Below the pieces are notes generated by a model. The model was not told where the DNA came from. It was given only the letters and a program-made list of their open reading frames with translations, and searched no databases. 64,000 nt of DNA. Source: Savitreella phatthalungensis. Lineage: Eukaryota. Location: positions 62,001 through 126,000 of the forward strand of contig AP039707.1 in NCBI GenBank assembly GCA_051599415.1, in the 5' to 3' direction. A program made the translations under genes and the position numbers. Positions 4,301 to 54,515 of this stretch are shown in pieces. Numbering within the stretch: position 1 is the stretch's first letter; every line of letters starts with the position of its first letter.

Positions 4301-4571
4301 TATATCGACTGGGTTGACTGACGAAAGTTGAAGATCACGTGTTATAAATCGGTCAGTCTAATGCATGTGTCAATGAGCTTGATTCGATCTTTATGAGAAG
4401 TTAGACAGTTGTTGATGCGGTGTATCAATCAATTGGTATGAGGATGTCGTTGGTGGACCTATGGTCTCGGTGGCGGATCAGGCGTCTGCGTGCATTGGTG
4501 GAGGAGAGTTTCAATTGTCTGGAGAAATATATATATCCAGCTTGACTCAGGTATAAGATTATCATCATCAC

Positions 4572-4618
4572 TCTGCGTTTCATTCTGCGTTTCATCCTAC
4601 GTTTCATCCTGCGTTTCA
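4572..4618. repeat. 12-bp minisatellite, about 4 copies (TYCTRCGTTTCA)
   Basis: tctgcgtttca ttctgcgtttca tcctacgtttca tcctgcgtttca seen directly. Confidence 0.8.
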
Positions 4619-4701
4619 AGAATTCATAGACTTTGATTGAACTTTTCGTGACTGATCAAAGAGAGTTTCCTGAATATTATATCTCTCTATTGAATTGATT
4701 G

Positions 4702-4841
<140 letters not shown>

Positions 4842-5373
4842 CGACTTTACCTGTTCGTCTTTCCTCCACAACCTCCCACACTCAACTTTCTAAGCTGGAG
4901 GGAGAGACAAAGAGAGAGAGAGAAAAGAGAACAAATTTGATCAAATATGACGGTGTGGGTGGCGCGGCCCGATATTTTATTCAACTTCAGTACAGACTGA
5001 CTGGACTCACTCAACTGACTGCACTGATCCAGGGATCATCACCAGGTCAGCGTAACTGACTAGAGCGACAACACAAGAGGGGCACATCTACAACCTTTGA
5101 AGGGTATACTATTGTGTAGATTGTAGTACATCATCCCACTCTACACCACAGACAGTCATACGTTCATCCACAGTACAGATCTGAGGATATCAATTTCCTC
5201 CTGTTCTCTAGCAAAAGTCACGAGCAACAGGAATCTATTAAGTCAAATTCACGCTCAAGCCTATCGCTTGCAGCACTAGCAACAGCAACAGCAACAGCAC
5301 GAGTCATCGCACGAGCAGTAGCAGCAGCAGTAGCAGCATCAACAGCAGCAACACTAACAGCAACTGTAAAATC

Positions 5374-18837: not shown

Positions 18838-20070
18838 CTTCTCGTCGAGCGCTCTAGACGGATCTTGAGCCGAGCTGTCAAAGTCCGAATTGTGAAGTGT
18901 GTGACTAGCGGTTTGCTCAAGTCCTAGGTGGATGTGAAGCCAGTCATTGGGAAGAAGGAACGGTGAGAACGGCGATAGCTAGATGCTGCAAAGGTGTTGC
19001 GCGGAGAGAGTGGATAAAGCGGATTGAGGATGAACCGATGAGCGCGGAGTCTATGCTTTGTAGTTCGGGCGTAAGGGTTGACGAGTGACGAGTGACGACA
19101 AGCGAGACGACAGTGGGAAGCGAGGGTCTCGCAAGGGTAAGATCAGGTAAGATCGATAGTGTCGAGCTAGCTCAGAGTCAGGGTCGAGTGGGGGCCGAGT
19201 CAGAGTCGAGTCAGAGTCGAGCCGAGCTCAGAGTCAGAGTCACGAGGGAAGATGGACCTCACACCCGACGATCAATGTGATAAGTCGATGGAATGGAGGG
19301 CGTGACGATGATTTGTGGTTGCAGTTGTAGTTGTGGTGGATTCGATTGCCCGAAGCTAACAAACACAAGGCGCTTGACTTGATCTTCTTCTGCCACCTCA
19401 AGATCTCGAGCAACTTAAGCTTAGCTTTTTGAATCTCTCGATGTCTCTTAGCGTTGTCTCTGATCCAGGGTCATGTCTGACCCGAAGAAACGGATAGAGA
19501 GAGCGCTTAGGCTTACGCCCACGCTTCGGCTTAGTCTGGCCTCCGAGGGTGAGGAAGTTCCCTGACTTTCTGGATTAGATTCAAAAGGCTTATGCCGGGC
19601 TTGTTTCCCTTATGGCGACCGCAACAGGTGTGTGTGTACCTGCAGCCTGCACGTTTTGACAGGTCGGCTCTGGGGACGCCTGTGGAGGAGATGCCGGTGA
19701 TGCCGGTGACGACTGAACCTGTGTAGATACAAGGTCTCACTTTTCTTGTCACTCCGGCATTATTCACCACCCCTTTGAACTTAGGACTTTGACCTTGGAC
19801 GGCGTGAGATGGGTGAGCTGGATGATTCTTGGGTGCGGACTAGAGCGAGCGAGATCTGGTAGCCTTGTCGGTTTCGGCTTCGGCTTCTATAGAACGGAGC
19901 GGCTTGTGAATAGAATATGAAGAGCAGCGTGGAAAATCCAGCGGGGCTTCCGCGTGAAAGCTCGGTCGATCCTCTCTCGTTTGCAATCTGGGTTCTTCTA
20001 GTTTAGATACCGGGTCAGTCAATGACTCGTTCGCGCTACATTGCTCAAACTCCAGAGCAGATCTTGGAAG

Positions 20071-20382
20071 ATGGATCTGATAGAGGTGAATGAGGAGGTG
20101 GAAAGGCAGCGGCTTGGGAGAGAGAGCTGTCTTAGCAGTAGTGAGAGACCCAGGATAGTGGAATATCCAAGTTCAACTTCAACTTCCGTCTATCCGCTTG
20201 ACCTTGACCTATGGCAGAGTCACGGGGGAATGGATGATGGATTGTCTCCGATGCTGACCTCCCAAACAGTCGAGAGAAGCCCAGCTGCTGGAGAATTGAG
20301 AAAGAAGGAAGCATTGAGAAGGAAGCTCTTCAGCCTAGAAAGAATCAAGCAAGAGCGAGTAAATCCTGCGAAAGGCGAGTGA
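20071..20382 (+). CDS. Possible small orphan protein (103 aa)
   Basis: ATG-initiated ORF with protein-like composition and a charged helical C-terminus (ELRKKEALRRKLFSLERIKQER), inside a 5-kb gene-free gap; no recognisable motif. Confidence 0.2.
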   Translation: MDLIEVNEEVERQRLGRESCLSSSERPRIVEYPSSTSTSVYPLDLDLWQSHGGMDDGLSPMLTSQTVERSPAAGELRKKEALRRKLFSLERIKQERVNPAKGE

Positions 20383-21104
20383 ACTCTGAGGAGGGTGAAA
20401 AGACATAGGACTTGGACATTGGCCTTGGACATAGGCCTTGGACATTGGCGTAATAGCTACAGCTTGTAGCAAAAGGCAAGGCCATGGTCTGTAGCTGCTA
20501 TTGATAGCGTAGATGGACGGGAGCGCTTCCCTTTTACAACCCGCTCATCCTTACTTTTCAGGCCGCTCTAGGTTGAAGACGGCTTCTTGACATTCATGGC
20601 ATTCATGGCATTGATGGCTTGGAAGGGCGGCTCCCAGACCGACGTCACCCTTCCTCGCTCATCTTCTTTCGCCATGTTTTCTTGGTATTTGGTAAAGAGT
20701 GGAAGCTAGGAGGGAGATGTGACGTGTGTCTTGTTGGTCGTTGTAGCTGACAGAGCACATTTGTCTTTTGACCTTACCCGAAGCCATACTCAACATACTT
20801 TTTCCAGATGAAAAACAAAAAACGCCACACTGGGTCTCGACCATGAAGATCTACAGACAAGCTTCACCGTTGATGGCATGGATGATGAAGATGTGAAGCT
20901 GGAAGGGACTTTTCGACTCGGATAAGCTTTTCTCAATCTTCTCAATCTTCAGACGGTCAATCAAGTCAAACACTCACCTGTTTGGAAGTTGTGAAAGGGT
21001 TGGCCAAGCAGTGACTGCAGCTCCACCTAGCCAGGTGGTCCAATGTCCCCTCTTGTCGATCCTCACTCAATCCCAAGAAGAGCTTTTCACCACGGCCTCG
21101 CCTC

Positions 21105-21180
21105 GCTTTGCTTTCCTTCACTTCACTTAGCTTTACTTTGCTTCACTTTGCTTCACTTTGCTTCACTTTGCTTTGCTTCT
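21105..21180. repeat. Degenerate pentamer repeat (CTTTG/CTTCA)
   Basis: gctttgctttccttcacttcacttagctttactttgcttcactttgcttcactttg... seen directly. Confidence 0.75.
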
Positions 21181-23903
21181 CTTGACTTGACCTCGCCTCC
21201 TCATCTTTCCACAATCGAATAATCTTCTTGGCTCTTCACCTCGTGGGCAATCCCCTGCTCCGATCCACAGACAATGTGAGATATGAGACGCGTGCGTTAC
21301 AAAACGAACCCATCCCATGCACCGCCAGCCTCGATATTGGGAAACGTAACGCGGTCTTGGACAAGGGATCGACCAAAAGTAAACGCTTCTCGACCCTCGC
21401 TCACGCTAATGCTAATGCTCACGTTCCCGTTCACGTTCACGTTTCTCGATCTCGATTCTCGTTCTGCGACTGAGACACGCCAGAAAAGCAAATGCCGGAA
21501 TTCGGACCTCTCCGTCATGCTAGTATTGATAGATCTCTGGAATCTCCCGTCAAGCCCGACAGAGTGCTATTGCAGCCGACAGCAGTGTTGGTTGACGACC
21601 CTTTGCCTCGCTTTAGTGGAGCGTTTTTCTCTCCTCTGTTCCCATCCGTACTCGTGTCGATGACCCTCGCACTCACGGGACACTTTCTTTTTTTTCCCTC
21701 ACCCGCTCTACCGGTCCGCCCCACTGACAAGGCAGATCGACCTAAACTGGACTATTGCCCTCGGCCGGCACTCAAAAACGCCACCCCCGTCTCACCTGCT
21801 CCTCGCCCGAAAACACCATCAACGGGTAGTCCTTGGGGTGGGCGCGAAAGTTTGAATCTCGGATGCTGAAAAGGCTCCGAAGCGAAGAGTTACTTGATTG
21901 GACGCCACATCTTCTATCAAGCTGAAAGCAGAGAGACTGTCAAATACTGGATGACGAAGACTCCGTGTAGGCGCCGAAGCTCTGGTCGATGCTTTTGACC
22001 AAGTCCCATGACGCGAGCAAGGACTTTGAGTTAGCGGCTCTTGAATACCATGATTCCCGCCACGTTGTCAAAAGAGTTCTTCCTTTCGTCCGACCATCCC
22101 AATGGACCGTGTCTCGCTGATGTGACATGTCCCCCTTCCAAGGATGATATCCTCCCGCGGCAGACTTTTCTTCGTCCGGACAATTACAAAAAATGCCGAG
22201 CTCGCGAGCGTTCGAGCGAGAGCGAGTCCCATCATGAACGCCTTAAAAACAGTTCACGCACTTGGTGTTTCGCATGGTCTGACTTGTACCGCGTTTGTGA
22301 CGATGCATCCATCTCCTTCCGCGCGAGTTCGTCGTCGACATGACCCTTTTTCTTCGCGTCTCTCGGCATCACGAACCTCATCTTCCTCTTACAAAGCTCT
22401 GCTTACCTAGGCGCTCTGTAGTTTGGACGGAATGACCTGACTCGAGTGTACTTTTGATCCGAGGATGCGGATAGGATGACGCCTGTCACACCTATCTCGT
22501 CCGAACTTTTTGGGAGTACAGTTCTGACACCTGCCAGATTTCGAGGTCTTCACTGTTCTCGGAAATGAGCTCTAAATGAAGAGGAGCAGCCTGTAGAGGG
22601 ACCTCCGAGTGGGGCGCCTCGTCACCTATACCGACGTGTTCATCTGCCTCATCGATCTGACCTGTCACCTCCCATCACTCCTTAAGCACCGCTCCAGCTT
22701 CACATTCCCAATCCACACTCCCATCGGTCTATTTTGGCACGCCGAGTGGCGTTTCCTTCTGGCCACCGTAAATCTGTAAGAGGCCAACACCATGTCCAGA
22801 AAGGGAATCAAATCTGACAGCCTTCCAGGCTACTCCTGCTTCACGGTCGTCGTATCAAGGCGGCTGCCGAGACATTCCTGCTAGCGTTGCCCCAATCTTC
22901 ACATCCTTATTTGCCGTAGGTGTCCTCGCCTTCTGACCCCTTTCATCGTCCAGGCACCTAGTCTCATACGTCCCTTAGAGGTGAGGTGAGACAAGGGCTA
23001 GACCCTACAGCGCTTGCATGCATGTTTGCCCTAGCACACGACGTCGGTGATGGGTTGTGAAAATTTGTTGCAACTGCACCTGATACCAGGCAGACCCGCG
23101 GACGATGGTGTGATGGTACCATGCTCGATGCTATTGCGTAGCGTCGATCAAAGGGCGCGAGGGCGGGACCTTGAACGTGCCCCGCCTTATCGCAACGTCC
23201 AGTATGACAGAGAGGCGTGAAGGCATGAACCATCCAGACTTCACGGAATCGGCTCCCGGAACTCCCTAAGTGATCGACATCCCTCTTCTCCAGATCGGGA
23301 AATCCCTCTTTTCTCCACAACCTCACCTCGTGCGTCGACGGGCGATACGGTGGAATCGGACGATGTGACGAGTCGATTAGATGAGATCGACAAGGTATCC
23401 GCGGATGGCTGTCGATCTTTCAGCCCGCACGCACACACGCCTGCTCGCGTGCGCGATCGACAGAGAAGGGATCGTCCGATTGGGCCTTGCGAGAGATACG
23501 ATAAGATGGATGAGATCATGATCCCCCAGACTCACAGCCCGGTGTCTCAGGATGTTTTAAGACCTGGGGGGATCGAGGTCTGTTTGACGAGCGAGAGCGA
23601 TGGCGCCATCGGGGACGATCCATCGTTCTAGGCTACCGAATGACCAAGAGCGATCTCGAGATAGAGTGCGCTTTCCTCGATGACCAGGGGTGGTTCAGAA
23701 GAGGGAGACGAGGGTGTAACATGTGCTTGTCGGTAGTGGCGACTTTCTACGTGCACGGTTCCTGGAGGATAAGTGTACTCTATTTTTACTACAGAGGTGA
23801 GAGAACGCACAGTGAGTCTGCGTTCGTAGAGTGTTGTCATCCAGGTCTCTGTCCATGCGGGTATGTGTGTGTGTCTGGGAGTGTGTGCCCTAGAGTGTGT
23901 GCG

Positions 23904-35181: not shown

Positions 35182-36227
35182 ATGGCGCTCATCAACGTCC
35201 TTGACATTCGTTTCCTCAACAATCCTGCCCCAATTGACGCTCCTTACGAGATCGAAATCCAGTTCGAGTGTCTAGAGGCGCTCCAGAACGATCTCGAATG
35301 GAAGCTCATGTATGTCCGTCCCCATCTACCCATGCAACACAGAACTTTCGACTGACAAACCCATTCAGCTACGTTGGCTCTGGATTCGAGCATGACGTCG
35401 AGCTAGACTCCCTTCTCGTCGGGCCGATCCCAGTTGGAATCAACAAGTTCGTCTTCACTGCCGACGCGATTGATCCCTCACAGATCCCAGCAGCCGAAGT
35501 GCTCGGTGTCAGTGTCATCCTCCTGACCGCTTCGTACGACGATCGCGAATTTGTCAGGGTCGGCTTCTACTCCAACAACGAGTATGCGGATGCAGAGCTG
35601 CGTGAGAAGTACACTCGGTTGCTGGCCGAGGGCTCAGACGAGGAGAAGGCAGGATTCAAGTTCGAGGGCGTGCGGAATGTGCAGGTGCAGCGGAACATTC
35701 TGACGGAGAAACCGAGAGTGACGAGATTCAACATCAAGTGGGACAACGACAACTTCACAGACGCACCCCCAGTGCAGGAGGAAGACGATGAGGAGGCAGG
35801 CGAAGTTATCGCACTCGACCAGCTCGGCGAAGGCCAGGACGAGGAGGAGGAAGACGATGACGAGGCAGGCGCAGATACAGTCGGAGCGACCGAGGCAGCT
35901 GGAGCCGGAGAGCTTGCTCCTGGCGCTGCTCCTGGCGACGATCAGAACGCCAGCGCGTCCGCTGATGGTGCTGCTCCTGCAGACTCACACACAGTACCGG
36001 AAGATGAAGATCTCGAGGACGAGGACATCGAAGATGAAGAGGACGAGGACGAGGATGACGAGGAGGACATCGAGGACGAAGAGGAAGAAGACGACGGCGA
36101 AGGAGAAGGAGAACCTGAGCCCGAACTGGAGACCCAGGCTGCTGAAGGGGAAGCTGCGGTCGAGGCCAAGTCAGAGACGATTGATGTCCAAGATGAGCCG
36201 ATGCCAGACAAGCCTGCTGAAGCATAG
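35182..36227 (+). CDS. ASF1: Histone H3-H4 chaperone ASF1; exons 35182-35309 and 35369-36227
   Basis: Exon 1 [17 protein letters not shown]...DLEWKL; 59-nt intron GTATGT...CTGAC...CAG (35310-35368); splicing restores LEWKLIYVGS; then [28 protein letters not shown] and an acidic tail. Confidence 0.95.
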
Positions 36228-36559: not shown

Positions 36560-38894
36560 ATGGCAGACTACGATGACGATGATCTTTTTAAAGACCTGTA
36601 CGGTGACGAGGACAAGAAGGATGCTCCGGCGCCAGTAGCAGCAGCGCCCTCAGCAGCCGCAGCACCTGCTCAGGCTGCAGCACCGGCAGCTGCACCTGCG
36701 CCTACGCCTGTGCCGAATGCTGCACAAGCCGGGTCTGCTCCTACAGCTGTAACGACATCGGCTGACAAGTCGAACGACATCCTCGCGCAGCTTCAGGCAG
36801 CCGCGGCTCAAGGACAAGCTCGTGACCCGCGTCTCGGCGGCGCTGCACCGACACCTGTCTCTGCAGAGTACAACAGTGCGCCTGCAGGGCCGCCAGCGCA
36901 AGCACCTACGCCTGTGCCACCGTACATGGCCCAGCAACAGCAGCAGCAGCAGCAGTACCAACAGCCTCAGCAGTACCAGCAGCCACAGCAGCAGATGCAG
37001 TATGCACAGCAGCCTCCGCAGGCACCGAGCTACGGTGGCGGTGCTCCGGCCGGCGGCAACGGTGCTGCACCTGGAGCTTACGGCGGCGGCGGCAACAGCA
37101 ACTTTGTTCAGCAACCACGTCGTGATGAAGGGTATGTACCATTCCGTGTGACGAGACTAACGCGTAGAAAGAGCAGAGAACGAGGAACGAGAAAGAGAGC
37201 ATGTGTCCATATCCAGCAGAGATCTTGTTGTCGCTCAGAAAGAGAAGGCTCGCAATGGCGAAGCGCTAGATATACCGTACCAGGTCGGAGAAGACTGTCA
37301 GGGCAGTGCAATTGTACGCCTTATAGTCGCTCGGAAGCTAGAGAGAGAAAGAGAAAGAGAAAGAGACAGAGAGAGATATACCAAGACAGACCAAGAGACA
37401 GACAGAGAGCTCCCTCGTGCAAGCACAACCACTATCTACCATCCTTCCTACCTACCTATCTACCTTCATACGGTGACACAGACAGAGAGAACAGAGACAG
37501 TCAGACAAACACTTCTTACTCGTCGTAGCTGGAAGCACCATCGCTTTGTGGGTCTCGTCAAGTGCGACTGAAGGATCGGAGCGTGTTCATATCGGGCCAC
37601 TGCCTTCGACGAGCGCGTCCCAATCCTAGGTCACAGAGTACACTCTCTCTCAAGATAACATCTCTACAGACACACTCTCTATAACCTTCCTGAAGACCAT
37701 ACACCTCTCTCTGCCACGCTCACTATCGCTCGTTCCTCTCCTTGTTCTACTTCCCTACCGTCACAAGCCGACTCACAAGACAGATCCACAGAGACTAACG
37801 CGTTTACTGATAGAAAGATGTTTGTCGGCGGTCTCAACTGGGAGACGACCGACCAATCGCTCCGAGAGTACTTTGAGCAGTTTGGCCGTGTTACAGATGC
37901 GATGGTGATGCGTGACGGTGCTACGGGGCGATCTCGCGGGTTCGGATTCCTGACGTTTGCGGATGCGAGCATCGTGACTGGTGTGGTGCAGAAAGAGCAC
38001 TTCCTCGACGGCAAGATCATCGACCCTAAACGTGCGATCCCGCGTGACGAGCAGGAGAAGACTGCGAAGATGTTTGTGGGTGGTGTTCCGAGCGACTGCG
38101 ACGAGGACGCTTTCAAGGACTTCTTCACGCAGTTTGGCAACGTGATCGACGCAACCCTCATGATCGACAAGGACACAGGCCGACCTCGAGGCTTTGGCTT
38201 CATCACGTTTGAGCGTGACGACGCGGTCGAGCGGTGCATGCAGGTCCGCGACCTCGCCATCCACGGCAAGGTGATCGAGGTCAAGCGCGCAACCCCGAAA
38301 GGCCAAGACGCCAACCCAGGACGCTTCCAGCGAACAAACGCTCCACCACCGTCCGGCTACGGCGCACAAAACTTCTACGCACCATCCCCAAACGCCTACA
38401 ACCAAAACACCTCCTACCAGCAGCCACCGCCCACCCAACAACAACAGCAGCAGCAGCCAGCAGCAGCAGGGGCGTACGGTGGCATGACCCCGGCCATGAT
38501 GGCGCAGTACTACCAGCGGATGCAGCAGTGGATGGCGTCGATGCAGTCGCACATGAGTGCTCCGCAGGCGCAGGCGCAGAGTGGCATGACTCCTCAGATG
38601 ATGCAGCAGTTCGCTCAGTGGCAGGCGTCCCAGCAATCAGCCGGCACTCCTCCCCAAGGACCCAAAGACGATACCCAGGCCGACGCAAGGCGATCTTCAC
38701 ACCGTCGCGATCGATCACGGACCAGATCAAGATCACCAAATCGAGCAACGCAGGGTGCAAACAACGACTTCAGGAGGAGGTTAGATGATCGGCTTGACGG
38801 TGGAGGTCGATCCGGAGGAGGAGGAGGAGGTGGTAGACGTGATCGAAGGAGTGGTGGTTCTGGAGGTGGCAGATTCGAGCCTTATGGTCGGTGA
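36560..38894 (+). CDS. HRP1: Two-RRM hnRNP, Hrp1/Msi2-like; exons 36560-37131 and 37814-38894 (550 aa)
   Basis: Intron GTATGT (37132)...ACTAAC...TAG (37813); splicing gives [17 protein letters not shown]1 motifs RGFGFLTF and RGFGFITF; C-terminal PY-NLS-like GRFEPYGR. Confidence 0.9.
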
Positions 38895-38952: not shown

Positions 38953-40905
38953 TTATCCCTTGTTGTCGTCGATGCATTTCTTGACGTCGTCTGCAGTCTG
39001 CTTGTCTGGGAAGCGGATTAGGGATTGTCTTATTTTGCGACCTTCGTCGAACCAGAAGATTCGGAGCGTTGTTTGATTTTGGACAATGTCGTAGTTGAAT
39101 TGGTGGTGAAGGTGGGTGTTGAGTCTGAGTTGGCCTAGGCCGCCCTGCTGGCGAGCGAGTACACGGACTTTGTCGGTCGCGCTGTTGCGCGATACCTTGA
39201 CCGCCACAGGACCAATCACCTGGTATGCCTTCGTGTCAGGGTCCAGGTGATACAACTTACCAGTCGAGGTGATCAGCGCAGTCTCGTCCTCCTCACCGGC
39301 ACCCGTTGCTGTGCCCAGGTCAGCACCTACCTCCGAGCCGTCCTCATCATCATCATCCTCGTCGCCTTCACCGTTGTCGTCGCCGTCCTTCTTGTCACCC
39401 GATGCAGCACCATCATCAGCCTTCTTCGGCGCAGCGAAGTTGAATGTTGGCGTCGTGGATGAAAATGCAGGAGCTGGTGCACTGCTTCCAAAGGAGAATG
39501 CGGGCTTGGGTGCGTCGCTGGACTTTGCTGCAGTCGCTGACCCGAAACCGAATGATGGTGTGGTCGTCGATGACGTTTGACCAAAGCTGAACGTCGCTGG
39601 CCCGGTCTTTGCACCAGTCGCCGCAGGTGGGGCCGCTTGGCCGAAGGAGAAACCAGTCGATGCTGCAGAGCCGCCAGAAGATTTGCCGAAAGAGAAGCCG
39701 CCGGTCGTAGAAGGTGGAGCAGAGGTGGTGGTCGCGGCGGAACCAGAATCCTTCTCGCCGCTAGCAGGCGCACCTGCTGGACTTGCAAGAGGATTCTGGA
39801 AGGAGAAGCCACTGCCAGATGCGAATTTGATTGGCTTATCCGGCGTCCAGGTGTGGTCTTTCTTCTCGTCTGGCTTCGGCGTGGCTGTAGCTGCCTCTAT
39901 TTTCTCGTCCTTCTTTTCTGATGATTCGGTCGGCTTTGTCTCCGCGGGCTTGCCGAAAGCCGGTACCTGTGCTCCTCCGAAGGAGAACTTTGGAGTCTCT
40001 GTTGCTGGTGCTACTGGCTTGGTAGCCGCAGCCCCAAAGCTGAAGGATGGCGCTTGTGCGTTGAAGGAGAATGAGGGCGCTTTGGGCTCTGCCGGCTTGT
40101 CTGCTGGCTTGTCATCAAGCTTGGGATACAGACTTGTTGTAGCTGTCGTGGATGGAGCGAAGGACGATGTCGAAGTCGACGTCGCACCGTCGACCGAGGT
40201 TTTTGGAGCTTCCATTGTCGATGATGGCTTTTTGTCAGGCCGCTCGCTCTTCTTACTCTCGTACTGCCCGCAGAGTTTTGTCAGATCAGCAAATGGATCA
40301 TTGTCAAGACTCCGTTGCACAGCCTTGAGGAAGGCTGTATTGACGGAGCGCGTGTGTAGCAGGTCCTGATATTCCGCATCATCGACATCGTTTCCTGTCT
40401 CGGTGTTGGAAGTCTGCGTCCCGGTATTCGCCGGCGCAGGCGTGGGTGCTGGCGCTTGTCCAAACAGCGACGAAGTCGATGGGGTGGTGGCAGCCTGTGC
40501 TGGCGCACCAAAGCTGAAACCAGATGTCAGCGCTGGCTGTGTCGAGGCCGGCGCGCCGAAAGAGAATGGCTTCAAGGCTTGACCCGAGGAAGACTGTGTA
40601 GAAGATGTGCCGAATGATACGTTGGCAAAGGGATTCGGCTTACTCGCGGGAGCGTCTCCACCCGAAGATGAAGTCGCGCCAGTCATACCAAAACTGAATG
40701 GGTTGGCTGCTGGCGCTGGTGCAGTCGAGCCTGATTCACCCTGTTCACCGGCTCTCCGCCGTGACTTGGGCATTGCGAGTTTCCGTGTGGCCATGACTTC
40801 TGCACTGGCCTGAACTGCAGGTTCTGGCGGTCCATCCCTGTCATACTCCGGATCATCCTCCAGATTCTCTCTGGTGATTTGCAAACCTGCCTGTCGCTTC
40901 GACAT
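38953..40905 (-). CDS. NUP2: Nup2/Nup50-like nucleoporin
   Basis: N-terminal KRQAGLQITREN...ASAEVMATRKLAMPK, many FSFG repeats, C-terminal Ran-binding domain (GEEDE...GKLY...RVLAR...LRLN). Confidence 0.88.
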   Translation of the reverse strand: MSKRQAGLQITRENLEDDPEYDRDGPPEPAVQASAEVMATRKLAMPKSRRRAGEQGESGSTAPAPAANPFSFGMTGATSSSGGDAPASKPNPFANVSFGTSSTQSSSGQALKPFSFGAPASTQPALTSGFSFGAPAQAATTPSTSSLFGQAPAPTPAPANTGTQTSNTETGNDVDDAEYQDLLHTRSVNTAFLKAVQRSLDNDPFADLTKLCGQYESKKSERPDKKPSSTMEAPKTSVDGATSTSTSSFAPSTTATTSLYPKLDDKPADKPAEPKAPSFSFNAQAPSFSFGAAATKPVAPATETPKFSFGGAQVPAFGKPAETKPTESSEKKDEKIEAATATPKPDEKKDHTWTPDKPIKFASGSGFSFQNPLASPAGAPASGEKDSGSAATTTSAPPSTTGGFSFGKSSGGSAASTGFSFGQAAPPAATGAKTGPATFSFGQTSSTTTPSFGFGSATAAKSSDAPKPAFSFGSSAPAPAFSSTTPTFNFAAPKKADDGAASGDKKDGDDNGEGDEDDDDEDGSEVGADLGTATGAGEEDETALITSTGKLYHLDPDTKAYQVIGPVAVKVSRNSATDKVRVLARQQGGLGQLRLNTHLHHQFNYDIVQNQTTLRIFWFDEGRKIRQSLIRFPDKQTADDVKKCIDDNKG

Positions 40906-41915
40906 GGCTATGACAGGAGGATAAAATTAAGGATAAGGAGACAGACGATGAGAGACTTTTCGGTTTCAGAAGTGAGGTATCGCTGATTGAGGTGAGGACC
41001 GAGGTAGTGTAGCAGATGATTGTAAGGAGGATGGTGCTGTGATAGGGTTGACTTGGAGGTTACGCCATGGGTTGTGTGAGCTTGTGCGGTACGAGTGAGT
41101 CCTGCACGGGAATCAAGCCGAGCACGGGATTGAAGATGTGGTCCACTATTCGGAGCCCTGGTCAGTCACTGTACGGTGTGTACTGCACAGGTAGGTCGAT
41201 GTCAATTAGGGTGATCTGACGCCACAGATTTTGTATCATGTGGCGCTATACAGAATCCCAAGTTCGAATGATTTGCACGGGTTTTTTACCTGTTACCAGG
41301 CCTGATAGACAGACTACCAGCGCTTAGACAACTGTTGACGCCCCAGAGCACACTGATCACGCACGGCCATGCATTCGACCTCTAGACTGGATCTGGAGCC
41401 AGAGTAGAGTTGCCGGTAAGCCGTACAGGTCGCTGAAGTAGAGGTCAGCCAGCGGACGCGCGGCCGTAAATCACTGAAGAGATATGCAGGTAAATAGACA
41501 GTCAGACAGAGAAGTGCTGCCGGTAATGAAGTGATATTTCTGCCGAGACGCTTCCAGATGACGAGTTACCGGAGGAAGGACAAGCAGCAAAGTGACTCAC
41601 AGCAGCGACTCAGAGAGCGCGAATCATGCTGCTTGAGGAGACTTTGTCCACGGCAATTGACGTGGGTCTGCGTTCTAGCTTGGAAGATATAGTCAAGTCA
41701 AGTGATGTCGGTGGAGAAGATGATTTCTATGGAGGCGGATGATTGATCACATCTGAACATGAGGGCAGACTTGGGATTGTGTATCTGGGCCCTTGAACTA
41801 GACCGACAAGTGCGTTAGGGATGACGATGACGACATCGGTGTGTTTCATCCGTCTCTATGTGTGTCTATGAGACTTCACATAGGGATGTATATGTGCATA
41901 TGAGTGTGCATGTGC

Positions 41916-41979
41916 GCATGAGCATGAGCATGAGCATGAGCATGAGCATGAGCATGGGCATGTGCATGGGCATGTGCAT
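41916..41979. repeat. (GCATGD)n hexamer microsatellite
   Basis: Six perfect GCATGA units followed by GCATGG/GCATGT variants. Confidence 0.9.
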
Positions 41980-42015
41980 TTACATACACACATATGTACA
42001 TATGTTAATGGTGAT

Positions 42016-43735
42016 CCCTATGCTCCCTGAACCTCCGAATTAATTCGGTGAAAATTCGGTGAATATTTAGTGGTCTAAATTCGGTGAAAATACGGGGGTT
42101 TTGGCGACCGCGGTTTTTCGGAGGTACCGAATTTCCGCCGAATTTCAGATTTGGAGGTAGTATCATTTGTAAAAACTGAATTTGACGACTTGAGTGATTT
42201 TAGCAATTTATTTGTATCTAAACGCGCTAGAAAGATAATCTGTGAAAAGTCGGAGGTTGCACGTGATCGGCCAGAATCGTAGCAGGTAGACGAGATTGTT
42301 TCAGATTGACGAGGATGTACCAGATAGAGTGCTCTTCAGGTCGTGTCTGCTGTGACACGGCAAATAGATGCCAATGACAGCTGTGCAGCGCCGGAGAAAT
42401 CCTGTACCGGGTATGTCAGCATGTTTCAGGATGGACAGGAGCGAGTCCCTACCGCTTGACATGTTTGAAGTAGAAAGTGAGTTTCACATAGATAGTCTGT
42501 CGTCTTGGCCTGTGAGACTGTCAGTACTGTGCAATGGCAATAGGCTATTTTGGATAGACGCACCCTGTAATGGTAGTTGAAACCACGAGTCTGTGATAAG
42601 GTCAGTCAGTCGGAATGAATGTGATTCAGGTAAACAGACCTTTGTTTCAGATTGACGGGTCCAGTGACAATTCTGCAACGGTGTCAATGATCTGGTAGAA
42701 GGGTGTTTCAGATAGACGTACCTTTGTATTGTTTCTGGAAGTAACGAGTCTGTCATTGTGTCAGTATAGTGCAGATAAGGGCATGTTTCAGGTAGACAGA
42801 CCTTCGCATTGACCTTTGCCATGAGATTGTCAAAGAGTCAGTGTCCAGTAGAGTCACAGGAATGTGCGTACCTGACTTGTCTTGTCTCAGATAGACGAGC
42901 GTCAGACAGATGAAGTGTTCCAGATAGATGAAGCGTGCCTGTGACAGCATCAGTAGAGTAGGATGATGAGAGGTTGTGGACCACTCGTACCTTGAGTGTA
43001 TGATTTAGATGATCGCAAACACACTGTGTTGAGTCAGCAGGCAGCTAGACAACCGTCTTGTCCTTACAGTGAAGTAGTTGTTTCAGGTTGATTAGACACG
43101 CGAGTCTGACAGATGATATGTAACAGATTGACGGCACATGTGTCGATTCCTCAGTGAGGTGCTCCATACATGCAGCTGGACAGACACTCTTGTTGCGCGT
43201 GGAAGTAGCATGGTCACCACTGTCATAAGGTTGTGAGTGAGTGACTAGTGTCGGACTGTCTACCTGAAACACGTCGATTGTCTCACTTATATAAGCTACA
43301 GAGGAACACTGAAAGAAACACTAATCTACTGTAGGCTGTAGGCGCCAGAAAAGCCTCCACATTATCGATTTAGCAATTACGCACTGCTCTACCTCTTGCC
43401 TCATTGAAGCAGCAAAGTTGAATTTGTCTAAGTCCGTTAGAAACTCCGGGGTAAGTCTGAGGTTGATTGCAAGGTCTGAGATTGATTGCTGCGTTTCAGA
43501 CATCACGTGATTCTAAGTACACAAAATCGGTCAGAATTCGGAGGTGACACTAAAAATCGGTGATTTCTCGGAGGTAAATTCGATCTGAAAGTCAGATTCG
43601 GTGATTTTCCGGAGGCCGCCAAATCTGCTGCGAGAAATCGGTGATTTATCTGTGACTTTTCGGAGGTCAACTTTCGCCCTTCATAGTAAATCGGCGATTT
43701 TTCTGCGATTATTCGGAGATCGGGGATTCATAGGG
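42016..43735. mobile_element. Putative non-autonomous TIR DNA element (1.72 kb) with subterminal and internal repeats
   Basis: Left end CCCTATGCTCCCTGAACCTCCGAATTAAT versus reverse complement of right end CCCTATGAATCCCCGATCTCCGAATAAT; AT on both flanks (possible 2-bp TSD); TCGGWG repeats at both ends; no transposase ORF. Confidence 0.6.
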
Positions 43736-44027
43736 ATGATCTCCATTCGAGCAGTAGATATATATAACTTTACAGCGTACACTCATACGTGGGTTTCATG
43801 TATGGACGTGGCTGGGTTCAGCATGCATTGGCAGGTGGAAGCAAGATCAAGTGGTGAAATAATTCGAAAGGATGATCACGTTCAACCTTGGATAGATTAG
43901 AGTACGTTCTCTAGATCCATCCAAGCTACGTGCTGTTGTGTGCATCCGCTGTTTCGAATTGATGAGAAGGGATAAAGCATGTGCGAGAATTGTGTGTACG
44001 GGATTGATCCAAAGGGATGCACGATTC

Positions 44028-44080
44028 GGTCATGAATTGTATGAGATAGAGTAGGTGGGTCATGAATTGTATGAGATAGA
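44028..44080. repeat. 23-bp direct repeat, 30-bp period
   Basis: GGTCATGAATTGTATGAGATAGA at 44028 and 44058. Confidence 0.9.
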
Positions 44081-45609
44081 ATCGATGGGTCAGTCAATCA
44101 TACCTGACGGAGATGAATTCAATGGATGAGAAAATCCTCCAATCTGAGCGTGGATGGAAATTGTATTCAATAGATGATCCAAGAATAGATCTTCTGTACG
44201 TGGGTGTACGCGTGGTTGATTTTCTCTCTGAATGCACTTTCAATCTGAGACAGCGAGTGCAGATCATTTGACACTACTACTGCTACCACTACTACTGTTA
44301 CTGCTACTACTACTACTAAAATCTCCAGATCCATAAAATTTATACATTTTCATAATCGAGTGAAATCGTATCAGGATACTTTCTCAATGTGGAGACCGTG
44401 ACCGTGGAAATGAAAATGGGAAGGAGATATGACATTCATATCTGACTGCGGTCAGATCAAGCTTCCACTCAGTGAGCATGGGGTCAAAGAATTATTATTG
44501 TTGTGAATATAGATTAAATTCTCTATAGATCCGGATTGAAAATCAGCTGAAAATCACTACAAGTACTATATACACAATTAATCATAGAATCTACACCCAT
44601 GTTCACATATATTCACACACATATACTGCATGGATATACACGATCCTCAGCTGTCCAATACACACACACGTTCATCCCTCTTCCAGATATTCTCTTCTTC
44701 CTCTCTCTCTCTTCTCTCTCTCTTTCTCAGCCATCCACATCCACATCCACACATCTCCCTACCAGGATACACACTCATACACACACACACACACACACAC
44801 TTCCCCAATACACACACACACCCACACACACACATCCCTCCACCTTCAGCAAACATCATCATCTTCATCACCCTCCTCTCTCCACTCTCCTCTCCCTCCA
44901 AGTGTCAAACTCAAGCTCACGCTTACGCACAAAACGAATCCAGGTCGACTTACATACAGTTACGACCGTCCAGAAAGCGTAATCGTTGACCTATACAGGA
45001 ACCTTTGACATTAGCACCAAGGTCATCCGCCAGGGGTCACAGACACTGTCAGAAGCAGACACACAGTCTAGGTACGTGTAGGCGCAGATACAGGTACAGA
45101 GGCAGAGAAAACAAGCGCAAAAAGCAGTTGCAGTGACCTTGTCAAAAAGTCATTCTTCAGCATTGGCATCTACGCTTGTTTACGGAGATCATTATTTCCA
45201 AATCACTGGATTGATTATTCACGCTCAAGAGGCAGCAGCAGCAGCAGCAGCAGAGAAAGAGCTTCCAGATTCCATTTGCGTCTTCTCACTCAGTCTTCTT
45301 ATCTACACGAAAGTAGACTCCAACGACAAATTGACGCAATCTCTTCCAGTCTCATCCTGATCTCCCTCTGAGCCAGTGGACCCAAAGGATCTTTCAATTG
45401 ACTGCCCTCATCGCATCTGGCTATATCACTCCTCCCTTCAATCCAGCTCCACCGTCTAAGCTTTGCTTTCTGCGCGTCATTCACTTGTCGCGTAGCAAGC
45501 CTCTGTACGCTAGTCTTCCTTTCAGCGTTCCTTTTCTCTTCTACCAACACACATCTTCCTTTCAATCCTCTATCCTGGCTTCCTTCGCATAGAGACCAGG
45601 AGCTAGCGC

Positions 45610-52536: not shown

Positions 52537-54360
52537 ATGGCTTCAAAGCTGAAGCCAGAATCCCTCAGAGCCGTCGTAGACGCTCCAGAAGGCGCTCAAC
52601 CAACATCTACAATCCTACAGGTTCTACAGATCAAGCAACTCACCTCTGCATCAAACAATCAGGATCGCTATCGACTCGTCCTTAGCGATGGCGTCAACTT
52701 CATCCAGGCCATGGTCGCTACACAGCTCAACGATCTCATCAAGAAAGATCAGCTGGTCAAGGGAGTCTTCATCAATCTCACATCCTACTCAATCACGATG
52801 ATGAAGGAGCGCAAGATCCTCATCGTCCTTCACTGCACTATCGAGCCAGACGCACCTGCAGAAAAGGTCGGCATCCCCGTAGCATTTGAGGAGAACAGAC
52901 CAGCAGACGGAACTGGTGCTGGTGCCGTCAAGTCGGAATCCTCACATGCGGGTAACGGTGCTCCAGGCAGACCTGCACAGGCCAGATCTGCCGTCTCAGG
53001 CGGCGCAGGCACATCCTCAAATGGTCCTCCCGGTGGCGGCACTGTTTACCCGATCGAGGGCCTTTCACCCTACCAGAACAAGTGGACGATCAAGGCGCGC
53101 GTCGTCCAGAAGAGCGATATCCGACAGTGGCACAATCAGAAGGGTGAGGGAAAGTTGTTCAGCTGCACGTTCTTGGACGAGTCTGGCGAGATCCGAGCTA
53201 CAGGATTCAACGACCAGGTCGACGCACTGTACGACGTGCTCCAGGAAGGCCAGGTGTACTACGTGTCCAAGTGCCGCGTCAACATTGCAAAGAAGCAGTT
53301 CTCCAACGTCAACAACGAATACGAGCTCATGTTCGAGCGAGACACGGAGATCTCAAAGGCGGACGACGCAGGCGCCGTCCCAGACATCAAGTACCAGTTT
53401 GTCGAGCTAGCAGACCTCGAAAAAGTAGACAAGGACGCAGTCGTCGACGTCATCGGCGTCATCAAGGACACAGGCGAAGTCGGTCAAATCACCTCCAAAA
53501 CCACGAACAAGCCGTTCGACAAGCGAGAGCTCACAATCGTCGACAAGACGGGGTACTCTGTCAGGCTGACGTTGTGGGGTAAGCAGGCGACAGCATTCAA
53601 GGGTGACCTGGACTCTGTCGTCGCGTTCAAGAGTGCCAGAGTATCCGATTTCGGTGGTCGCTCACTCAGTCTCTCGAGCGGTGGCACGTACCAGCTCGAC
53701 CCGGACATGCCACAGGCGTTCGCCCTCCGCGGGTGGTACAATCAGGAGGGTGGTAGCTCGATTGCCGCCTTCCAGACGCACGCCAATATGGGTGCAGCCT
53801 CTGTGGGTGCGGCGGCAGGCGGACGCGTGCAGGAACGTCGGACGTTTGGTGACGTGATCGCCTCGAATCTCGGCTCGTCCGACAAGGCCGACTTCTTCAC
53901 GGCGAGGGCGACAATTGCGTACATCAAGCAGGACAACTTCTGCTACCCTGCCTGCCCCTCACAGGGCTGCAACAAGAAGGTCACAGAGGCAGACCAGGGC
54001 GACTGGCGGTGTGAGAAGTGTGACAAGTCCTACCCAGCACCAGAATACCGCTACATCATGACCGTCTCAGCACTAGACCACACTGACCAAGTCTGGCTAC
54101 AGCTCTTCGACGACCAAGGCAAAGTCATCATGGGCCAATCCGCAGGAGACCTCGTCAAGCTCAAAGACGAAGACGAAGCAGCCTTCACCGAAGCCTTTGC
54201 AGCAGCAACCTCAAGACCCTACATCTTCAGAGTCAAGGCTAAGCAGGAAACCTACAACGGCACTACCAGAGTCAGATACTCAGTCACCTCTGCAGACACC
54301 CTCAACTTCAAATCAGAACTTGAGGTCCTCCAAGCACAGATCGAGTCCTATAACCAGTAG
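52537..54360 (+). CDS. RFA1: Replication protein A large subunit
   Basis: RYRLVLSDG, PIEGLSPYQNKWTIKARV, DESGEIRATGF, DFGGRSLS, zinc ribbon YPACP...CNKKV...CEKC. Confidence 0.97.
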   Translation: MASKLKPESLRAVVDAPEGAQPTSTILQVLQIKQLTSASNNQDRYRLVLSDGVNFIQAMVATQLNDLIKKDQLVKGVFINLTSYSITMMKERKILIVLHCTIEPDAPAEKVGIPVAFEENRPADGTGAGAVKSESSHAGNGAPGRPAQARSAVSGGAGTSSNGPPGGGTVYPIEGLSPYQNKWTIKARVVQKSDIRQWHNQKGEGKLFSCTFLDESGEIRATGFNDQVDALYDVLQEGQVYYVSKCRVNIAKKQFSNVNNEYELMFERDTEISKADDAGAVPDIKYQFVELADLEKVDKDAVVDVIGVIKDTGEVGQITSKTTNKPFDKRELTIVDKTGYSVRLTLWGKQATAFKGDLDSVVAFKSARVSDFGGRSLSLSSGGTYQLDPDMPQAFALRGWYNQEGGSSIAAFQTHANMGAASVGAAAGGRVQERRTFGDVIASNLGSSDKADFFTARATIAYIKQDNFCYPACPSQGCNKKVTEADQGDWRCEKCDKSYPAPEYRYIMTVSALDHTDQVWLQLFDDQGKVIMGQSAGDLVKLKDEDEAAFTEAFAAATSRPYIFRVKAKQETYNGTTRVRYSVTSADTLNFKSELEVLQAQIESYNQ

Positions 54361-54515
54361 TAGTAGCAGCAGCACCAGAAGCAGCAGCAGCAGCGGAAGC
54401 AGTATGTCTTATGCTCATCATATTCTTATCCTATCCTATCCACAGCCAGCGACCCCGATGGAGATTCAACTAACCGTGTCAGCTTGTCCTTGCGCAACAA
54501 ATCCAAAGTAGAAGA

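Follow-up and report, generated by a model that had tools for sequence, protein, structure and literature searches.

A duplicated branch box and acceptor in the long, conserved intron of an HRP1-type gene from Savitreella phatthalungensis

The intron of a predicted HRP1-type RNA-binding-protein gene from Savitreella phatthalungensis carries its branch box and 3′ acceptor twice, once at the presumed productive 3′ end and once close behind the donor. The gene model and the duplication were observed in the 64,000-nucleotide stretch of DNA that was analyzed (hereafter the window), and the position of the intron and its unusual length were found to be conserved in distantly related fungi. The duplicated module itself is peculiar to the window among the 18 relatives compared. 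We favor, with roughly even confidence, a lineage-specific duplication within an ancient long intron, the proximal site having been crippled by its spacing and being used rarely or never. In this lineage, the branch box and acceptor, perhaps together with the first exon bases, would have been duplicated inside the intron, so that one copy now lies near the donor and the other was left at the productive 3′ end. The distal copy would carry out productive splicing. The proximal copy, which would be transcribed first and offers an identical branch box, would act at most as a weak decoy that adds inefficiency to an already slow intron.

Gene model and splice junctions

The coordinates of the gene and of the features within its intron are collected in Table 1. 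The exon 1 product opens with an acidic N-terminal motif, followed by a low-complexity A/P/Q-rich region. This motif also opens the Pneumocystis and Schizosaccharomyces relatives, and its form ...D(L/F)..(L/I)YG(D/E)E ahead of the low-complexity linker is common to the named orthologues from Protomyces, Pneumocystis, and Schizosaccharomyces, the Schizosaccharomyces counterpart being DDELFKDLYGEE in a protein named "mRNA cleavage factor complex subunit Msi2". At the N-terminus, 21 of 29 residues are identical to Protomyces P0124, which was also the single match (E = 8.5e-3) when the exon 1 protein was searched for closer relatives. Several of the protein matches carry the source name "heterogeneous nuclear ribonucleoprotein HRP1". 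The Pfam family RRM_1 matched the HRP1-type protein over two stretches (E = 1.7e-34), giving two RRMs in tandem, both of hnRNP A/B-D-Musashi type. The best solved relative was S. cerevisiae Nab4/Hrp1 (2cjk/2km8, "Nuclear polyadenylated RNA-binding protein 4"; E = 1.1e-60, 209 bits, residues 1–162), followed by hnRNP A2/B1 with 146 bits. The C-terminal R/G-rich tail resembles the ends ...RFDPYSR and ...FHPYRR of the relatives, and its end may be a PY-type nuclear import signal. From this homology, the gene is predicted to encode an Hrp1/Nab4-type hnRNP with two RRMs; binding to (UA)n efficiency elements and a role in 3′-end formation are putative for the protein encoded here. The public ORF call at the locus covers exon 2 only (358 aa), and the window's own ORF forms a singleton cluster with no close relative in the protein collections searched.

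Table 1. Features of the HRP1-type gene and its intron (positions are those of the window)
Feature	Position	Strand	Remarks
Exon 1	36560..37131	+	572 nt, 190 codons plus 2 bases; from ORF and translation
5′ splice site	37132..37137	+	GTATGT; phase 2, within a Gly codon; identical hexamer in the ASF1 intron
Proximal copy of GAGACTAACGCGT	37153..37165	+	CTAAC at 37157-37161, branch A at 37160
Proximal AG	37166..37167	+	An in-frame mini-intron of 36 nt would end here; first AG, 7 nt after the branch A
Purine-rich tract	37168..37200	+	A or G at 29 of 33 bases; adjoins the proximal AG; GA-rich repeats
Intron interior between the copies	37168..37790	+	5′ half purine-rich, 3′ half richer in pyrimidines
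First in-frame stop (TAG)	37526..37528	+	Ends the frame of the retained intron as well as that read after proximal splicing; upstream of both RRMs
Distal copy of GAGACTAACGCGT	37791..37803	+	CTAAC at 37795-37799, branch A at 37798, 15 nt before the acceptor G
Eight bases present only in the distal copy	37804..37811	+	TTTACTGA; from the gapped alignment and motif list
Distal 3′ splice site (AG), predicted productive	37812..37813	+	Junction protein matches named relatives and 19 metagenome loci
Exon 2	37814..38894	+	1081 nt; two RRMs, Q/M-rich region, R/G-rich tail to ...RFEPYGR

Joined together, the two exons give 550 codons and a stop. Homology confirmed this two-exon model, as the peptide formed across the distal acceptor matches that of the named Hrp1/Msi2 relatives, and the relatives end exon 1 as the HRP1-type gene does (...GA(T/C)GAAGG|GT). 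The distal acceptor is predicted on this basis to be the productive site, and the GAGACTAACGCGT copy in front of it is likely the productive branch site. An earlier note on this DNA had stated that splicing to the distal site removes 682 nt and yields a 550-aa protein with two RRMs, which exon arithmetic, homology, and Pfam all bore out. Its parallel statement for the proximal site was reproduced by translation: with 36 nt removed, the frame is kept and runs to the premature stop that ends at 37528, giving a predicted isoform of 310 aa that contains no RRM.

The repeated module and its spacing

The earlier note had also reported the identical 13-mers, each leading to TAG|AAAG; these were reread in the sequence and recovered by repeat searches. 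When one mismatch was allowed, GAGACTAACGCGT occurred just twice in the 64 kb, compared with 0.11 occurrences expected, and a count of two was reached in one of 100 shuffles. When the last 37 nt around the acceptor were compared with the intron upstream, the longest stretch of exact identity was 13 nt. Across 1000 dinucleotide shuffles, such a stretch averaged 7.7 nt and never exceeded 12 nt, and because none of them reached 13 nt, a chance origin of the repeat is excluded. A gapped alignment of the two copies extended the likeness to 12 plus 8 identical bases (GAGACTAACGCG and TAGAAAGA) on either side of the distal-only octamer, with a score of 31.5 that no shuffle of 1000 attained. As the heptamer AGAAAGA occurs six times in this GA-rich intron, the likeness past the 13 nt should be read as suggestive. 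The distal-only bases create a second branch-like box, TACTGAT, whose A stands only 3 nt before the acceptor. About 625 nt separates the copies, and the proximal one begins 15 bases past the donor hexamer. The exactness of the 13-nt identity, which includes flanks that are dispensable to a branch site, points to common descent over convergence.

Only two introns in the window, those of ASF1 (35310-35368) and HRP1, have coding support, and the window is to this extent intron-poor, in agreement with the earlier description of an intron-poor genome. Motif scans for local introns returned many candidates, and coding support was required for acceptance; an intron-like stretch of 37 nt (2335-2371) that had none was set aside. 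A Pfam search of 162 ORF pieces from gene-poor stretches added just a SET fragment and an SCP2 domain. The ASF1 intron is 59 nt long, with its branch A at position 46. In the HRP1-type gene, the proximal branch A is base 29 of the intron, with 7 nt from it to the acceptor G, a small correction to the earlier note. The short introns of S. pombe average 49 ± 11 bp (PMC4675715), the mean intron of T. deformans is 78 nt (PMC3648899), and the shortest intron of S. cerevisiae is 52 nt (PMC4712674). The 36-nt spacing, set against the 59 nt of the other confirmed intron, argues against efficient use of the proximal site. Since GT-AG introns of 30 and 35 bp have been validated in animals (PMC4675715), an intron of 36 nt is nonetheless physically possible, and introns of the fission-yeast type also have a short distance from branch point to acceptor, with a median of 12 nt (PMC4079972). 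Use of the proximal copy would destroy the RRM reading frame, so it cannot be the main site, and its spacing is likely the reason that it loses. On these grounds we infer that the proximal site is weak and that it goes largely or wholly unused.

The same spacing weighs on the autoregulatory switch that the earlier note had put forward, a reading that we consider doubtful. Excess Hrp1 would in this case favor removal of the 36-nt mini-intron, or use of the further AGs that follow the proximal acceptor at 37171 and 37176, placing the transcript in the RRM-less frame. The resulting mRNA would have a 3′ untranslated region exceeding 1.3 kb behind the 37526-37528 stop and would be removed by NMD. 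Identical branch boxes, acceptors that both read TAG|AAAG, and a frame and stop that are as first claimed speak for such a switch, and S. cerevisiae Hrp1 is reported, going by a title (Goguen and Brow 2023), to be autoregulated, though transcriptionally. The mini-intron is, however, well under both the 59 nt confirmed here and the sizes typical of related fungi. Moreover, a competent site that is met first in transcription would be expected to dominate, an outcome that the need for the RRM protein would forbid.

The intron interior

Between the two copies, the purine fraction is 0.60 in the 5′ half and 0.45 in the 3′ half. The purine-rich tract that adjoins the proximal AG is a candidate exonic enhancer that may favor a weak acceptor; it would assist the switch and would speak against a relic duplication, as it would favor the proximal acceptor. 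Branch-like boxes of the form YTRAY are absent from the interior, compared with 3.7 expected (P = 0.016). An interior free of further boxes suits the switch, and the presence of a perfect, strong branch box next to it could mean selective retention, which again counts against a relic.

A further point against the relic is the frame behind the proximal AG, which remains open for 119 codons (as long in 2–6 of 2000 shuffles), probably as a result of low-complexity repeats. It is highly improbable, in our estimation, that this stretch is an alternative coding exon, giving an RRM-less isoform made up of the N-terminal domain and an R/K/E/S-rich tail. Open frames of 119 and 133 codons occupy two of the three phases, and stop triplets number 4 against 17.8 ± 2.5 expected, but the shortage falls in CTAC/CTAT and GA units that recur, and the shuffle test therefore overstates it. 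Codon scores were −0.14 for the frame of exon 1 and +0.05 for the other open frame, compared with 0.10–0.35 in 12 real genes, and third-position GC was 0.44–0.45, compared with 0.64–0.72 in six genes. The stretch matched no Pfam family, and a search of 1.84 billion representatives returned no matches.

The arrangement of direct repeat, insert, and direct repeat, in which the repeat may extend over the first 5 nt of exon 2, also resembles the footprint of an insertion, as does an interior composition unlike that of the exons. About 620 nt would have entered beside the 3′ end of a shorter intron with duplication of a 13–28-nt target, after which the downstream copy would have rescued splicing and the upstream copy would later have lost 8 nt. 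We regard this origin as quite unlikely. The intron appears to have been long already before the lineages split, so a short ancestor is unneeded; the interior has no second copy in the 64-kb window, where only GA-rich low-complexity matches were obtained, or in the 28 metagenome loci described below, and neither terminal inverted repeats nor a poly(A) end were listed for it. An insertion concerns only how the repeat arose and would be compatible with the relic reading.

RNA-level features of the intron were also considered. No Rfam family reached its gathering score in the intron; the one match below threshold, to isrG on the minus strand of exon 1, had 19.3 bits where the gathering score is 100 and was taken as chance. 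A global structure was rejected, the minimum free energy of −184 kcal/mol being that of 20 shuffles (−184.0 ± 7.5 kcal/mol, z = 0.00), as was a "zipper" stem between 37169-37223 and 37707-37749 (−42.2 kcal/mol), which 136 of 500 shuffles equaled. Nor was support found for a duplex in which the copies pair at the palindrome ACGCGT in their core (−10.1 kcal/mol, with 750 of 1000 shuffles as good, and a summed pair probability of 0.011). In the predicted fold, the distal box is unpaired (P of at least 0.99 for TAACGC) and the proximal box is mostly paired, to which we give no weight since the z-score of the whole fold is 0. No (UA)n-type Hrp1 site was found near either copy, which stands against the switch. 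The only AUAUA stretches in the intron are two AGATATACC 9-mers, at 37269 and 37373; by our own estimate, chance would provide about 0.9 such 9-mer repeats per intron, and no clear set of (UA)n or A-rich signals was found within it.

Orthologous introns and known systems

Orthologous introns were sought in 28 distant metagenome loci. In 21 of them, an acceptor is found at the same phase-2 place before A-AAR-ATG-TTY-GT, and in 19 of these exon 1 also closes with ...DE[G] or ...DS[G] and a GT comes next. A donor could be placed in 19 of the 21 loci, and 18 distinct introns were measured, all from distant relatives (34–56% protein identity). The position of the HRP1 intron, phase 2 in the Gly codon before KMFVGGLNW of RRM1, is conserved across these distant fungi and, judging from this comparison, appears to be ancient. 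Its length is conserved as well: the 18 distinct examples of intron 1 measure 128–589 nt, the gene's second intron measures 55–161 nt, and intron 1 is the longer in 11 of 12 loci, by 3.6–6.5 fold, with L025 as the exception. The intron is therefore much longer than ordinary introns both in the relatives and in the window (682 compared with 59 nt). By analogy with other fungal RNA-binding-protein genes, such conserved and unusual length would be a signature of unproductive splicing or intron retention. Regulation of some kind through the conserved long intron is plausible. The switch is also favored by the fact that this intron falls into a class of conserved, long introns that typifies RNA-binding-protein genes with unproductive splicing (PMC4379411).

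The module repeat does not share this conservation. It was found in none of the 18 distinct orthologous introns, a weak test given the distance of these relatives; the result counts against the switch, and the conservation of the proximal branchpoint in relatives that the earlier note had raised was not observed, although at 34–56% identity this is no refutation. The longest repeat of the last 40 nt elsewhere within the same intron is 6–9 nt in all 18 relatives, compared with 13 nt here, and the duplication is presumably recent. A branch-like box with an AG near the donor was seen in one of the 18 (L023). In L003, the branch A lies 8 nt before the acceptor, which is a further sign that the short spacing of the proximal site is physically possible. 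Branch-like boxes are also present at +8 to +13 in L003, L014, and L026, where they look incidental.

That last observation bears on the possibility, which we hold to be unlikely, that the proximal box remains unspliced and serves as a decoy. It would bind the branch-point-binding protein or U2 unproductively and slow commitment to the distal site. More of the transcripts would then retain the intron and the in-frame stop that it holds at 37526, and expression would be tuned in the manner of YRA1. A box of strong consensus placed too close to the donor, in a long intron conserved across the family, would fit this role. Precedents include YRA1 and DBP2, each autoregulated by way of an unusually large intron in a manner described as "not fully understood" (PMC12458251), and the proposal that suboptimal alternative branch sites act as a feedback device for MSL5 (PMC4712674). 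The relatives have the long intron with no such decoy, so a decoy is not needed for the long intron's role; if the boxes near the donor in three relatives are incidental, the same may hold here.

A wider proposal, which we offer tentatively and ourselves rather doubt, is that the fungal HRP1 intron is kept slow (being long and, for most lineages, with its branch point far off and ~100 nt free of AG) as a feedback lever, and that the lever was rebuilt here with a decoy or with a 36-nt poison splice that diverts to the stop at 37526. Hrp1 is a core mRNA 3′-end and termination factor. If the intron-bearing orthologues use the long intron to control Hrp1 dosage, they would add to the cases in which unproductive splicing has been kept across very large distances, and a single dosage problem would have been met by two different routes, transcriptional in budding yeast and intron-based here. 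The duplicated branch site offers a clean, easily mutated handle for telling whether a box too near the donor does nothing, acts as a decoy, or works as a switch; in the first case, it would be an ordinary relic and mainly a warning for gene prediction. Conserved long introns of this kind are known from fungal RNA-binding-protein genes that are autoregulated. Our literature search found no paper on the fungal HRP1 intron or on duplicated branch sites, which is no proof of absence.

A related system is S. cerevisiae HRP1 itself, which Goguen and Brow are said to have found, in 2023, to be autoregulated by transcription attenuation. The family is the same, and Hrp1 dosage is under feedback control there; the budding-yeast mechanism is transcriptional, in a gene that is not known to have an intron, whereas a route through the intron here would differ from it. 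Hrp1 binds (UA)n repeats (PMC12458251).

For the repeated branch box, the closest comparison is with S. pombe, in which second branch points were detected in 89 introns among 1236 with well-supported branch points (LaSSO, PMC4079972). In that study, these second sites are weaker, have far fewer reads, and are located nearer the 5′ end. Unlike them, the proximal site here repeats the main one exactly over 13 nt, has an AG to itself, and stands more than 600 nt away.

For the intron as a whole, PMC12458251 describes negative autoregulation of YRA1 and DBP2 in S. cerevisiae through an unusually large intron. As in these genes, the genome has few introns, the gene for an RNA-processing factor combines a long first exon with a very long intron, and inefficient splicing is the presumed lever. 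The YRA1 and DBP2 cases were established by experiment, whereas a regulatory role of the HRP1 intron is suggested by its architecture. The mechanism proposed for them, intronic poly(A) sites (PMC12458251), likewise contrasts with an HRP1 intron that has no clear (UA)n or A-rich signals.

The fungal srp2 gene encodes an SR protein rather than a member of the Hrp1 family, and it has no known counterpart to a candidate site that is an exact duplicate of the module 15 bases past the donor hexamer, a feature known here from the DNA. Its retained intron is an NMD target and belongs to the longest 1–3% of introns (PMC4379411). As in fungal srp2/SRSF5 (Lareau and Brenner 2015, PMC4379411), the HRP1-type intron lies in an RNA-binding-protein gene at a position that has been kept across very large distances, greatly exceeds its neighbors in length, and would lead to an in-frame stop when retained or alternatively used.

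Gene model and surrounding features

The second exon of the HRP1-type gene codes for two RRMs. The best solved relative of the exon-2 protein is the Nab4/Hrp1 RRM pair of S. cerevisiae (2cjk, E = 1.1e-60, 209 bits), followed by hnRNP A2/B1 (146 bits), and the closest named relative is the 560-aa Protomyces lactucae-debilis protein P0124, with 64% identity across 68% of the exon-2 protein. The N-terminal motif encoded by exon 1 also starts P0124, as well as Pneumocystis and Schizosaccharomyces proteins named Msi2 or HRP1 in their source. When exon 1 is spliced to the distal acceptor, the junction peptide can be compared with those of relatives. The relatives read alike across the junction, which shows that the 550-aa model proposed in the earlier note is correct and that splicing to the distal acceptor is productive. 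The public ORF call at this locus comprises the 358-aa exon-2 frame only and forms a singleton cluster, meaning that it has no close relative in that protein collection.

Coordinates of the HRP1-type gene, its neighbors, and other features in the window
Feature	Position	Strand	Basis
ASF1 histone chaperone gene	35182-36227	+	neighbor
ASF1 intron, 59 nt	35310-35368	+	Pfam: exon 1 = profile positions 1-42, exon 2 = 44-154
HRP1-type exon 1	36560-37131
HRP1 intron, 682 nt, donor GTATGT	37132-37813		sequence reading
Proximal copy of GAGACTAACGCGT	37153-37165		sequence reading
Distal copy of GAGACTAACGCGT	37791-37803		sequence reading
HRP1-type exon 2	37814-38894
NUP50/RanBP1-domain nucleoporin gene with FG repeats	38953-40905	-	neighbor
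Intron-like, 81 nt, GTATGT ... ACTAAC ... CAG	54402-54482	+	motif scan
Intron-like, 37 nt, consensus signals	2335-2371	+	motif scan
Intron-like, 118 nt, consensus signals, overlapping the preceding	2377-2260	-	motif scan
Gene-poor stretches (4-5 kb each)	1368-5373, 18838-23903, 40906-45609

The 81-nt intron-like stretch lies 42 nt past the stop of ORF 52537-54360, between two convergent genes, and may be a 3'-UTR intron; no coding support was found on either side of it. Coding support was likewise absent for the two overlapping stretches, which sit within 4 kb of sequence that lacks long ORFs and Pfam matches. The three gene-poor stretches contain no ORF of at least 200 aa and, among the tested ORF pieces of at least 60 aa, no Pfam match above the curated cut-off, which is unusual in an otherwise gene-dense, yeast-like window. 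A sub-threshold SecD/SecF match at 4690-4881 was taken as chance.

Duplicated branch site and acceptor in the HRP1 intron

The coordinates given in the earlier note for the duplicated branch/acceptor module all agree with a direct reading of the window. The proximal copy of the 13-mer abuts AG 37166-37167, AG 37812-37813 closes the ten bases 3' of the distal copy, and the acceptor context is TAG/AAAG (slash, splice junction) at both sites. The pair was also recovered by a repeat finder (family D20). Chance is ruled out for this duplication: allowing at most one mismatch, a pattern search found the 13-mer at only two places in 64 kb (0.11 expected), and when the last 37 bases around the acceptor were compared with the upstream intron, none of 1000 dinucleotide shuffles reached an exact match of 13 nt (mean best match 7.7, maximum 12). 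In a gapped alignment, 12 + 8 identical bases flank an 8-base piece, TTTACTGA, found in the distal copy alone; the extended likeness is no more than suggestive, because AGAAAGA occurs six times in this GA-rich intron. The productive acceptor (37804-37813) reads TTTACTGATAG/, and the eight bases missing from the proximal copy are exactly those that hold the TACTGATAG motif. Many relatives carry this motif as well, roughly 100 nt 5' of their acceptor, which may reflect either homology or coincidence. An origin by insertion with target duplication, which would overlap with the other readings, appears improbable; no second copy of the intron interior was found within the 64-kb window.

As the earlier note predicted, splicing to AG 37167 would remove 36 nt, keep the frame, and end at TAG 37526-37528, giving 310 aa without RRMs. 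The next AGs, 37171 and 37176, would give introns of 40 and 45 nt that are unproductive as well, and an unspliced transcript would read into the intron in frame and meet that stop too. The switch proposed in the earlier note, autoregulation by choice between alternative 3' splice sites, would require the proximal site to be used. The mini-intron is probably weak or dead, because 36 nt is well below the sizes in related fungi (introns average 78 nt in T. deformans and 81 nt in S. pombe, PMC3648899; 49 +/- 11 bp for short S. pombe introns, PMC4675715) and because its branch A is intron base 29, only 7 nt before the AG; in the ASF1 intron, the other one confirmed in the window, the branch A is at position 46 and 13 nt from the end. 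Moreover, a competent proximal site, transcribed more than 600 nt ahead of its twin, would be expected to win, and the cell presumably needs the RRM product. Still, the site is not to be written off, since validated GT-AG introns of animals include some of 30-35 bp (PMC4675715), the branch-to-acceptor distance in fission yeast is short (median 12 nt, PMC4079972), the branch A of one related intron (L003) lies 8 nt from its end, and the tract 3' of the proximal AG is 88% purine by our own count, like a possible exonic enhancer. In addition, the 623-nt interior (37168-37790) contains no YTRAY box (3.7 expected, P = 0.016), so the perfect box near the donor stands out; YTRAY boxes are few in the long introns of relatives as well. 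On balance we regard the switch proper as unlikely, and as slightly less likely still a decoy role in which the proximal box is not spliced to but slows splicing of the intron.

The sequence behind the proximal AG could also be a real alternative coding exon. Its frame stays open over 119 codons and another frame over 133, lengths matched by only 2-6 of 2000 shuffles, and 37168-37525 holds four stop triplets where 17.8 are expected, although this stop-poor stretch consists of GA and CTAC/CTAT repeats, so that the shuffles exaggerate the effect. Codon scores are -0.14 and +0.05 (0.10-0.35 for 12 window genes), third-position GC is 0.44-0.45 (0.64-0.72 for six window genes), the open frames contain no Pfam family, and they match no protein among 1.84 billion representatives. 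These frames do not look coding, and such an exon is very improbable.

Searches for RNA structure gave a whole-intron fold at z = 0 against shuffles and no Rfam family at gathering score; a zipper stem between the 5' and 3' ends and pairing of the two copies via ACGCGT were no better than shuffles. The 9-mer AGATATACC occurs twice (37269-37277 and 37373-37381, 104 nt apart) and contains AUAUA, recalling the (UA)n sites to which Hrp1 binds; chance alone is expected to produce such a repeated 9-mer within 682 nt.

Orthologous introns in distant relatives

Scanning metagenome contigs with the exon-2 protein as query gave 28 loci (L001-L028), all distant (34-56% identity). In 21 of these, all except L005, L007-L011, and L016, an AG lies one base before AAR-ATG-TTY-GT, the phase-2 position of the window's intron. 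Requiring at least 40 open codons upstream of it, we placed the donor in 19 loci; L021 and L027 are cut off. The exon-1 frame ends in ...DE[G] in 18 of the 19 and in ...DS[G] in L025. For L003, L004, and L023, each with two to three candidate donors, the one with the conserved exon end was chosen, and as L003 and L004 are identical, 18 distinct introns were counted. These are 128-589 nt long, mostly 330-540 nt, whereas intron 2, placeable in 12 loci, is 55-161 nt; intron 1 is the longer in 11 of the 12 (3.6-6.5 fold; exception L025), and the window shows the same contrast between its HRP1 and ASF1 introns. The conserved position and the long lengths together indicate an ancient intron that has been kept long.

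The duplicated module did not share this conservation: in 18/18 relatives, the longest exact repeat of the last 40 intron bases elsewhere in the intron is 6-9 nt, compared with 13 in the window. L023 alone combines a branch-like box with an AG close to the donor, which would define a 40-nt mini-intron; by a rough, uncomputed estimate, chance would produce one or two such arrangements among 18 introns. Given the large distance of the relatives, this result is not decisive, but it shows that the long intron performs its role, whatever that is, without a proximal duplicate.

In 14 of the 18 introns the acceptor is preceded by an AG-free zone of 88-169 nt, and 13 of these introns carry a TACTGAT/TACTAAT/TACTGAC box 85-165 nt upstream of the acceptor; the fourteenth, L015, carries TGCTAAT at a distance of 93 nt, and in L023 the box occurs without a long zone. 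A block, ATACTGATAGCA, is conserved in intron 1 of the relatives with zone and/or box (L006, L012-L015, L017-L020, L022-L026, and L028). Zone and box together imply a distant branch point, which would be unusual for fungi. The window and L001-L003 do not show this trait, their AG-free stretches being only 13-21 nt. No published description of a family-wide long HRP1 intron with a distant branch point was found, an absence that is not proof, and we judge this architecture more interesting than the duplicated module.

Several local features accompany these introns. In L002, GGTAGCTCACAC (intron ~95-106) lies ~40 nt upstream of the branch region GGTAGCTGACAC (~137-148) with 11/12 identical bases, and L001 keeps TGGTAGCTCAC ~400 nt from the acceptor; these could represent a second, independent duplicated branch region. 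The intron of L003/L004 ends in GATACTAACGCGGCAG/AAAAATG, which is similar to the proximal copy in the window, GAGACTAACGCGTAG/AAAG: both contain GA.ACTAACGCG and place the branch site very close to the AG, despite a protein identity of ~50%. Donors in all 18 relatives are GTGAGT/GTAAGT/GTGAGC/GTAAGC in phase 2, so a retained intron stops at once (GG/G TGA or TAA); in the window, with GTATGT, the frame of a retained intron is open for 131 codons up to TAG 37526.

We favor, at about an even chance, a reading in which the HRP1 intron would belong to an ancient long class of HRP1-type introns, plausibly regulatory as a whole, and the proximal copy would have arisen by lineage-specific duplication and be disabled, fully or nearly, by its spacing. 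As the insertion reading bears on origin and overlaps with the others, the likelihoods attached to the several readings need not add up to one. The pattern of an ancient intron that is kept long has been described for the fungal srp2 intron, which is retained and targeted by NMD (PMC4379411), and for the introns through which YRA1 and DBP2 are autoregulated (PMC12458251).
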